Assembly (NCBI GenBank): GCA_049695115.1
Contig: JBAVRP010000030.1
Coordinates: 905-64,904 of the forward strand
Reading direction: 5' to 3'
Source: Burkholderiales bacterium
Lineage (GTDB): Bacteria > Pseudomonadota > Gammaproteobacteria > Burkholderiales > JBEEJL01
DNA: 64,000 nucleotides
Part shown: positions 62,173-64,000 of the stretch, one piece after another
How the letters are laid out: every line of letters starts with the position of its first letter
Position numbering within the stretch: the stretch's first letter is position 1
Made by a program: the position numbers and the translations under genes
The notes under the pieces: model-generated
Databases searched by the model: none
The model's input: the letters and a program-made list of their open reading frames with translations, nothing else
What the model was told of the DNA's origin: nothing

Positions 62173-64000
62173 ATGAAGAAAATTTCAATGTCCTACACCC
62201 TTGGTTTAGACATCGGCATGGCGTCCGTTGGCGCGGCTTTACTGAACGATAAGCGTATCGTCGCCCTGCACGTGCGAGCTTTTGATAAAGCCGAAACGGC
62301 TAAAGAAGGCGACCCGCTAAACAAAACCCGCCGCGAAGCCCGTTTGACGCGCCGCCGCATACGGCGTCGCGCCTTCCGTTTGTTGCGCTTGTGCCGCTTG
62401 TTGAAACGTCGGGGTTTAATTTCCGAGGCGCAACCGGAAGCGTTTGCGCAAACAGAAACCACTCCCTGGCAACTGCGCGCTGACGGATTGGACAAATTAC
62501 TCTCGCCGACGCAATGGGCAGCAGTGCTTTACCATATCGTTAAACATCGCGGCTTTCAATCCACGCGTAAAAGCGAGGCGAAAGAAGATGAAAAGGCCGG
62601 GCAAATGCTGAGCGGTGTCGGCAGCAACAAAAAACTACGCGACGAAAAAGGCTATCGCACTGTGGGCGAAATGGCGGCGAAGGATTCTGCATTTGCAGAA
62701 GCAAAGCGCAACAAGGGCGGAGACTACAGCCACACATTCGGGCGCAAAGAACTTGAACAAGAATTGCATTTGTTGTTCGAACAACAGCGTAATTTGGGTA
62801 ACGCTCACGCCCATGTTGAACTAGAAAATGCAGTCAATGATTTACTGCTTGCGCGCAGACCTGCATTAGCGGGAGATGCCCTGCTGAAAATGATTGGGAA
62901 ATGCACCTTTGAACCAGATGAGTTCCGCGCTCCCAAAGCCAGCTATAGCGCTGAACGATTTGTATGGCTGACAAAACTCAATAACTTGCGCATTTCTGGT
63001 TTAGGAGAAGTGCGCGAATTGAATGAAGGCGAGCGGCAAATATTAATTGAGCAACCTTATATCCTTGCTAAGCTGACTTACAAACAAGTTCGCGACAAAC
63101 TCAACTTGGCCGAACACGACAAATTCAATAGCGTTAATTACCGTGTCGATAAAGAAAAAGACCCAGAAATTGCCACGTTATTTGAAGCCAAAGCATATCA
63201 TGCACTGCGCAAAGAATATAAAGATGCGGGGCTTGAGTCAGAATGGAAACGCGATGCTGTGAATGCGGAGCGTCTTGATACCCTTGCCTATGCATTAACT
63301 TGCTACAAAGAAGACGATGACAGCCGCAAATATTTGACCGAGCAAAAAATAGAAAGCGAAATCATTGAAGCGGTGCTGGAAAGATCATTTTCTGAATTTG
63401 TTTCGTTGTCATTAAAAGCCTTAAGAAAAATCCTGCCATTCATGGAACAAGGACAGCGTTACGACCAAGCCGTTATCAGCGCAGGTTATCAACATCATAC
63501 CGAAATTAACAATAATAATAATAAAAACAAATACTTACCCGCGCCAGATAAAAATCAAATTCGCAACCCCGTGGTGTATCGCGCGCTGAACCAAGCACGC
63601 AAAATGATCAACGCCATAGTGCGCGAATACGGACCGCCCTCTGCGATTCATATTGAATTGGCGCGGGATTTATCCAAACCGATGGATGAACGACGCAAAA
63701 TCGAAAAAGAACAAAAAGCTTTTCAAGACGATAAAATCAGAGCGCGTGATAATTTTATTGAGCAATTTGATTTTGAACCGAAGGCTTTGGATTTACATAA
63801 ATACCGCCTCTATCGCGAGCAGGCCAGCCAATGTGCTTATAGCCAAAAAGCGATTGATCCCAATCGACTGTTCGAACCCGGCTACGCAGAAATAGATCAC
63901 GCCCTGCCCTATTCGCGCAGCTATGACGACGGGCAGAATAACAAAGTGCTGGTGCTCACCGCCGAAAATCGTAACAAGGGCAATCGCACGCCTTACGAAT
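62173..64000 (+). CDS. cas9: CRISPR-associated endonuclease Cas9, type II-C (5' partial: runs off the window end)
   Basis: Hand translation of frame 1 from ATG 62173 (alternative ATG 62188) is open for 609 codons to base 64000. RuvC-I [17 protein letters not shown]. Bridge helix [30 protein letters not shown]. RuvC-II [80 protein letters not shown]. Absent from the supplied ORF track because it has no stop codon in the window. Confidence 0.95.
   Translation, partial: [609 protein letters not shown]

Follow-up and report, generated by a model that had tools for sequence, protein, structure and literature searches.

The closest described relative of the locus reported here is the type II-C CRISPR (clustered regularly interspaced short palindromic repeats)-Cas system of Neisseria meningitidis (Nme). 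Its effector, Nme1Cas9 (1082 aa), has been solved in several structures (PDB 6JDQ, 6KC8, 8JA0 and others), and its genes follow the layout cas9-cas1-cas2-array without csn2 or cas4. The repeat is 36 nt long and pairs with the trans-activating CRISPR RNA (tracrRNA) over 8 bp and, past an internal loop, over a long helix; AAGG comes next. Orthologs are defined as Nme1Cas9-like by >50% identity and exchangeable guide RNAs (Wei et al. 2022). In the survey of tracrRNAs by Chylinski et al. 2013 (PMC3737331), the family is marked by anti-repeat pairing, an intergenic place upstream of cas9 and a Rho-independent terminator, and an anti-repeat upstream of cas9 is the usual arrangement in subtypes II-A and II-C. 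We describe a locus of this kind at the right end of a 64,000-nt stretch of DNA (‘the window’; assembly GCA_049695115.1, contig JBAVRP010000030.1, positions 905 to 64,904) from an uncultured ‘Burkholderiales bacterium’ population known from metagenome-assembled genomes (MAGs). Window positions 62173-64000 are, with high confidence, the 5′ 57% of an intact cas9 gene in a complete Neisseria-type II-C locus.

With the Nme system the locus shares the order of the Cas9 domains at almost the same length (1080 aa), aligned catalytic residues (D13, H576 and N599 here for D16, H588 and N611), the gene layout, the repeat length and the plan of the RNA duplex. It differs in its host, an environmental Burkholderiales MAG in place of Neisseria, and in the sequence of the 3′ half of the tracrRNA, which here has three hairpins. 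Over the 601 N-terminal residues of the fragment that align, the two Cas9s are 48.3% identical, a figure for that part only, just below the 50% line of Wei et al. 2022. Relative to the surveyed tracrRNAs (PMC3737331), the one predicted here has the three family marks but no match in Rfam, and a mere ~36 nt separate its 5′ end from the start codon of cas9.

Nearer by sequence are uncharacterised Cas9s from Thiobacillus, Hydrogenophilales and Sulfuricella MAGs (L001, 75%; L002, 71%; P0001, 77%), which belong to the same clade and have the same locus layout. In these loci and in those of the window's own cluster (P0124, P0126/L052) the repeat is the same or nearly so, and the tracrRNA has the same position and structure. 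Among the matches listed in a genome-collection scan with the fragment, the best were Thiobacillus denitrificans UBA5601 (75%) and a Hydrogenophilales MAG (71%). A search of 5.8 billion proteins gave 77% as the best among the matches listed, which understates the closeness, since the nearest database relatives are 91-96% identical and belong to its own cluster of at least 90% identity, of which neither the representative P0124 nor the exact protein was among those matches, though the collection contains both. For Cas1, the best match in a metagenome scan was 68%.

Cas9 and the genes that follow it

Frame 1 is free of stops from the ATG at 62173 to base 64000, a run of 609 codons. The program-made list of open reading frames (ORFs) holds only four short entries after 62190 (65-100 aa), because ORFs running off the window end are not reported. 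A preliminary description of the window had translated this frame by hand and called it a type II-C Cas9 near that of N. meningitidis. Our translation reproduces the frame, and RuvC-I, the bridge helix, RuvC-II and HNH all fall exactly at the coordinates it had given.

The profile search that the description had proposed was run: against the Cas9 equivalog profile TIGR01865 (NCBIfam; curated cutoff, 100 bits) the fragment scores 537.6 bits (E = 8e-161), matching profile positions 1-631 of 1070. Pfam domains found in the fragment are HNH_4 (aa 554-608), and Cas9_a and Cas9_REC (aa 238-429). In a search of all PDB sequences the best matches are Nme-type Cas9 chains (8JA0, 6KC8 and 6JDQ, of 1082-1092 residues; E = 2.5e-160), and fragment residues 3-609 are collinear with residues 6-621 of these chains, in agreement with the closeness to the Nme-type enzymes that the preliminary description had stated. 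The bridge helix and REC lobe stand between RuvC-I and RuvC-II, in a region collinear with the Nme-type structures. RuvC is split into parts I, II and III with HNH inserted, D13, E495, H576 and N599 lying in the window and H717 and D720 beyond it. The fragment also contains a low-complexity NNNNNKNK pattern.

Sequence past 64000 comes from further assemblies of this population; wherever these overlap the window, the identity is 100%. Exact look-up found the complete MetY and P-type ATPase of the window in three NCBI ‘Burkholderiales bacterium’ MAGs and several Logan assemblies. The contigs reached through MetY were short, none of them going beyond 63747; the P-type ATPase led to L037. One contig, L037 (GCA_049691695.1), equals window 50296-64000 at 100% (13,705 nt) and extends it by 2,587 nt; another, L053 (SRR28002664), begins its overlap at 62192, matches at 100% for 4,396 nt and has almost 5 kb more beyond. 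The full-length Cas9 from L037 scores 791.4 bits against TIGR01865 (positions 1-1070 of 1070), adds Pfam RuvC_III and Cas9_RuvC to HNH_4 and Cas9_a, keeps an intact RuvC-III motif (GDLHHALDAAV) and aligns end to end with the Nme-type PDB chains (E = 1e-257). The items that the preliminary description had expected past the window edge, namely RuvC-III, the domain that interacts with the protospacer adjacent motif (PAM), cas1, cas2 and a repeat of 36 nt, are thus found on identical contigs. By these comparisons the frame is the 5′ part of an intact Neisseria-type (II-C) Cas9 gene.

Neither csn2 nor cas4 is present in the cas9-cas1-cas2 unit of L037 and L053, and the gene after the array in L053 is an unrelated PIN toxin on the opposite strand. 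Without csn2 (II-A) or cas4 (II-B), the locus is assigned to subtype II-C on its gene content, a reading that the compact cas9-cas1-cas2-array unit and the Nme-type nearest solved structures fit.

GenBank already holds the exact protein as ‘type II CRISPR RNA-guided endonuclease Cas9 [Burkholderiales bacterium]’ (MGB8339525.1, MGB8764390.1) in a version of 1075 aa that begins at Met6, window 62188; Cas1 and Cas2 of the locus are likewise annotated there. The suggestion that such a locus is easily missed therefore does not hold beyond the loss of the gene at the window edge. The two closest relatives, P0124 and P0126, open with MKKISTSY and MNKISTPY and have Thr where the GenBank start Met stands. 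Since the internal Met is replaced in both, 62173 is the conserved start, and judged by these relatives it is better supported (1080 aa) than 62188.

Four independent assemblies of the population match the window at 100% and then break off inside the 5′ part of cas9 (L033 at 62211, L036 at 62416, L035 at 62448 and L034 at 63747). Strains may differ at the cassette boundary, some perhaps having another locus or none, which could account for these breaks.

The tracrRNA gene, the array and the predicted PAM

The gap between metY and cas9 is 260 nt. Its minus strand reads GUUGUAGCUUACCGGGGUGAGAGCCGUUGCUGCAAUAAGG, then three hairpins, the last with a U-rich tail UUUACUUUGU, and comparison of relatives indicates that 62014-62137 on this strand encodes the tracrRNA, divergent from cas9 (Table 1). 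A covariance model was built from six copies of the element and run on 20 related loci and the window. In all 20 loci it gave one strong match (49-138 bits), which lies immediately before cas9 on the minus strand; the window likewise has exactly one match. Over the 20 sequences, compensatory changes occur at 16 of 16 modelled pairs, and 93.5% of cells are paired, against 63.7% in shuffles and 32-47% with slid partners, in an alignment that was fitted to the model and so somewhat favours structure. The folding energy of the region is -58.6 kcal/mol (z = -6.1). The hairpin between stem-loop 1 and the terminator is shared with the closest relative alone (L052, where it has one G-U change); in the six-sequence alignment L001, L002, L006 and L011 lack it.

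The predicted repeat:anti-repeat duplex comprises 8 bp, a 5x5-nt internal region with one isolated pair, and 23 bp, at -56.3 kcal/mol against -19.2 +/- 3.4 for shuffled repeats. In the 16 loci where both partners are available, the anti-repeat differs from the repeat of its own array by 0.9 mismatches and from the repeats of others by 2.6, and none of 10,000 permutations was as good. The first 23 nt of the anti-repeat equal the cas-strand repeat except for the first base, so that its only possible partners are array transcripts running opposite to the cas genes.

The element presumably shares the pattern ...GAGA(A/G)CCGUUGCU(A/G)CAAUAAGG with the Nme tracrRNA. Its 3′ part departs from the repeat, presumably in the manner of the Nme tracrRNA (CCGTTGCT.CAATAAGG). 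A weak -10-like hexamer, TAAACT, can be seen by eye at 62147-62142 on the minus strand.

In L053 the exact 36-nt repeat ATTGTAGCTTACCGGGGTGAGAGAGGGAGCTACAAC (cas strand) starts 65 nt after cas2 and is identical in L006 and L052, with 1 nt different in L001. On L053 a gap of 239 nt holds exactly this one repeat, and after the repeat come a trailer and a PIN/MazE toxin-antitoxin pair. A contig from the same population in another sample of the same study, L064, reads through a repeat end, the 30-nt spacer GCGTCAGTACTAACAGGTTTTAACTCAGTC and a full repeat, and its trailer and PIN gene are identical to those of L053. In both NCBI MAG assemblies the cas2/cas genes and the PIN gene are on separate contigs (67,692 bp, and 59,017 bp with the PIN protein MGB8339475.1), a sign that assembly broke off at the array. 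The recovered spacer has no self-target within the window.

The trailer is common to the window's population and a lineage ~90% identical to it (L054 and others), while the flanks beyond it differ. It may contain the promoter of the CRISPR RNA (crRNA), since crRNAs must be transcribed from the trailer side, or the terminator of the convergent PIN-MazE operon. Its sequence includes a GC-rich hairpin as well as a long, imperfect palindrome, GATTTTGATTTCGCGG...CGCAAAATCAAAATC, whose loop varies. At the end of L064, the last 19 nt as fetched (the first 19 nt when reverse-complemented) are AGATGTGTATAAGAGACAG, fused to a partial CRISPR repeat; we take this to be the Nextera/Tn5 mosaic-end adapter, and the end thus presumably to be contamination and not biological.

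From the arrangement of these parts we infer how the locus would be expressed, process its RNAs and cleave DNA. Along it lie the predicted tracrRNA gene (minus strand, ~62137 to 62014), cas9, cas1, cas2, a 65-nt gap, an array of 36-nt repeats and 30-nt spacers, and the 62-nt trailer. Since pairing with the tracrRNA is possible only for a transcript running opposite to the cas genes, the array would be read in that direction, and the crRNA repeat would pair with the tracrRNA anti-repeat. Cas9 would bind the dual RNA, recognise a PAM on the 3′ side of the protospacer (probably N4 and then a purine), and cut DNA with its HNH (His576, Asn599) and RuvC (Asp13, Glu495, His717, Asp720) centres; new spacers would be added by Cas1 and Cas2.

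The last 150 residues of Cas9 are 76% identical to those of L052, against 93-94% elsewhere in the protein, and within its own 90% cluster residues ~926-1075 are 70-76% identical, against 93-96% for the rest. This pattern echoes the diversification of the PAM-interacting (PI) domain that is known among Neisseria Cas9 variants. When PAM-contact residues are aligned to Nme1Cas9, three of four are kept (Q981, T1027 and N1029) and H1024 is replaced by Asn. Among 29 Nme1Cas9 orthologs (59.6-70.4% identity to Nme1Cas9), His or Asn at the H1024 position goes with a purine at PAM position 5 (PMC9433092). By analogy the PAM here is probably of the N4R type, with a purine and not specifically G at position 5, although this Cas9, at 48%, is more distant from Nme1Cas9 than the orthologs of that study.

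In 20 of 20 related loci, as here, the tracrRNA 5′ end is ~36 nt from the cas9 start codon and faces the opposite way. With the two so near, the cas9 promoter would have to overlap the tracrRNA gene or lie beyond it. In Streptococcus pyogenes a long tracrRNA form guides Cas9 to its own promoter. One speculation, which we hold to be unlikely, is that this closeness couples tracrRNA and cas9 here, by transcriptional interference/antisense or by a long tracrRNA guiding Cas9 to its own promoter, and that, separately, the fast-diverging PI domain with its H1024 to Asn change gives a PAM other than N4GATT.

Table 1. Features of the Cas9 locus in the window and, where marked as window-equivalent, on identical contigs that extend it
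Feature	Position	Strand	Basis
cas9 5′ part, 609 of 1080 codons (5′ 57% of gene)	62173..64000	+	open frame, TIGR01865, Pfam, PDB collinearity
RuvC-I catalytic Asp13 codon GAC	62209..62211	+	aligns with Nme1Cas9 D16
Arginine-rich bridge helix, aa 52-81, 50% Arg/Lys	62326..62415	+	residue count
RuvC-II catalytic Glu495 codon GAA, in IHIELARD	63655..63657	+	alignment to Nme-type PDB chains
HNH catalytic His576 codon CAC, in EIDHALP	63898..63900	+	aligns with Nme1Cas9 H588
HNH Asn599 codon	63967-63969	+	aligns with Nme1Cas9 N611
cas9, whole gene	62173-65415 (window-equivalent)	+	stop on L037/L053; 1080 aa
cas1, 316 aa	65419-66369 (window-equivalent)	+	3 nt after cas9; type II model TIGR03639, 292 bits
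cas2, 110 aa	66362-66694 (window-equivalent)	+	8-nt overlap with cas1; TIGR01573
Conserved trailer, 62 nt, directly after last repeat	L053 4604-4665 (window-equivalent 66795-66856); L054 5722-5783
tracrRNA gene (predicted), divergent from cas9	62014..62137, ends approximate	-	covariance-model match 62008-62144
Anti-repeat GTTGTAGCTTACCGGGGTGAGAGCCGTTGCTGCAAT (RNA sense)	62100..62135	-	duplex with own crRNA repeat
AAGG ‘nexus’ after anti-repeat	62099-62096	-
Stem-loop 1, CATCCC-UUCG-GGGAUG	62079..62094	-	helix 1: compensatory changes at 6/6 pairs
Extra 8-bp hairpin, between stem-loop 1 and terminator	62048..62067	-	fold, six-sequence alignment
Intrinsic terminator: 11-bp stem, GCAA loop (62046-62021), then UUUACUUUGU	62014..62046	-	terminator scan; helix 2 compensatory at 10/10 pairs
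Left part of conserved CRISPR-Cas cassette	61938..64000		blastn homology with L052

Alternative explanations

Several results weigh against a complete locus with a working array. The window stops at codon 609, and the remainder is read from other assemblies of the population and not from the window's own contig. A sigma-70 consensus scan of both strands of 61800-62500 gave no promoter for the tracrRNA or cas9. The k=31 contig L053 displays just a single repeat, and assemblies either collapse the array or break at it. The recovered spacer has no match in phages and only a chance 20-nt match in plasmids (E = 0.1), and its 22-nt PAM-proximal part has no exact match in viral contigs. With its end at codon 609 the window alone does not tell an intact cas9 from a decayed or orphaned one, cut short or frameshifted immediately past the edge and lacking a functional partner set, and the assembly breaks at the four positions given above fall in or near the 5′ end of the gene. 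Two independent 100%-identical contigs (L037 and L053) nevertheless carry the frame to 1080 aa, with the profile matched end to end and all six catalytic residues. The locus also has cas1, cas2, the tracrRNA, and a repeat together with a spacer, which leaves decay scarcely credible. The preliminary description had itself named a stop just beyond the window, a failed profile match or the absence of cas1, cas2 and an array as what would speak for decay or against the call; the gene runs intact, the profile matches, and cas1, cas2, repeat and spacer follow.

It is only slightly less improbable that 62014-62137 is no tracrRNA but a degenerate solo repeat, the remnant of an old array or the metY terminator region. 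The first 23 nt of the element do resemble the cas-strand repeat, no Rfam family matched 61800-62400 at E <= 1, and the scan for promoters was negative. A solo repeat or remnant sits poorly, however, with an element that keeps its place and strand beside cas9 in every one of the 20 related loci, that covaries with the local repeat, and that continues past its repeat-like part into two hairpins with compensatory changes at all their pairs and a minus-strand terminator; metY is transcribed away from the region, so the hairpin cannot be its terminator. A somewhat better case, still a very weak one, can be made for an intact gene set with an empty or nearly empty array of one repeat, which would give no current immunity and be naive or put to another use. 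L053 is the only contig of the window's population that spans cas2 to the downstream genes, and the ~90%-identical lineage (L054-L057, L060) also reaches this conserved trailer after one repeat only. Yet L064 has a spacer between two repeats beside an identical trailer, cas2 and the PIN gene are split over different contigs in both NCBI MAG assemblies, L058 and L059 stop 1 nt past the repeat, the sequence after the repeat in L052 is different, and k=31 assemblies collapse 36-nt repeats. The lone repeat of L053 is best explained as such an assembly collapse of a real array, and a complete II-C locus is the reading we retain.

Cassette context and significance

The preliminary description had judged the gene by eye to be more AT-rich than the neighbouring metY and had taken this as consistent with horizontal acquisition. 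The GC content of the cas9 fragment (47.3%) is indeed lower than that of metY (51.9%) and of same-sized windows elsewhere in the stretch (53.3 +/- 2.5%; z = -2.4, with 3% as low), but the skew is mild; the whole cassette has 49.4% and cas1 54%. Surroundings say more. By blastn, L052 is 86.1% identical to the window and its extension over 4660 aligned columns, from 61938 through cas2, and this homology begins 26 nt beyond the metY start codon. Upstream of it L052 has a SEC-C protein and MazE where the window has metY. In the ~90%-identical lineage metY is kept at the left and the sequence right of the 62-nt trailer is different. The unit from tracrRNA to trailer behaves as a cassette found in different surroundings. 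Mobility or horizontal acquisition of the cassette is plausible on these comparisons, for which context is stronger evidence than composition; as first worded the claim was overstated.

Past the array, L053 4743-7962 encodes the PIN-domain toxin, a MazE-type antitoxin, a metallophosphoesterase and then an arsenic-resistance-like trio (a MIP channel, a low-molecular-weight phosphatase/ArsC-like protein and an HTH_20/ArsR-like protein). The MazE-type gene of L052 lies upstream of cas9 instead. Far from the locus, the minus strand of 15455-19099 holds a 1214-aa ORF whose HExxH motif (AAHEMTHGV), noted by eye, suggests a zinc metalloprotease. It has a long (Thr-Pro)n linker from a GGTGTT tandem repeat of ~21 copies at 15585-15727, and its C-terminus resembles a sorting signal in having a Gly-rich and a hydrophobic stretch as well as an RRRK tail. 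The lowest GC content of the window, ~45.5%, is around 14900-15100, at the region of this ORF.

The locus is an ordinary, complete Nme-type II-C system with an already known Cas9, and for discovery it matters little, being one more uncharacterised enzyme of its type. This analysis adds the tracrRNA, the repeat, a corrected start codon and evidence that the locus is complete. It also illustrates that reading the bare sequence can be enough to recognise a Cas9 and place its residues exactly, and that genes running over a window edge are lost from ORF tracks. The unannotated tracrRNA, with a covariance model covering 20 related loci, and the repeat are enough for the design of a single-guide RNA. 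Being compact (1080 aa) and diverged in its PAM-interacting domain, this Cas9 ortholog is a candidate for those mining II-C enzymes for new PAMs.

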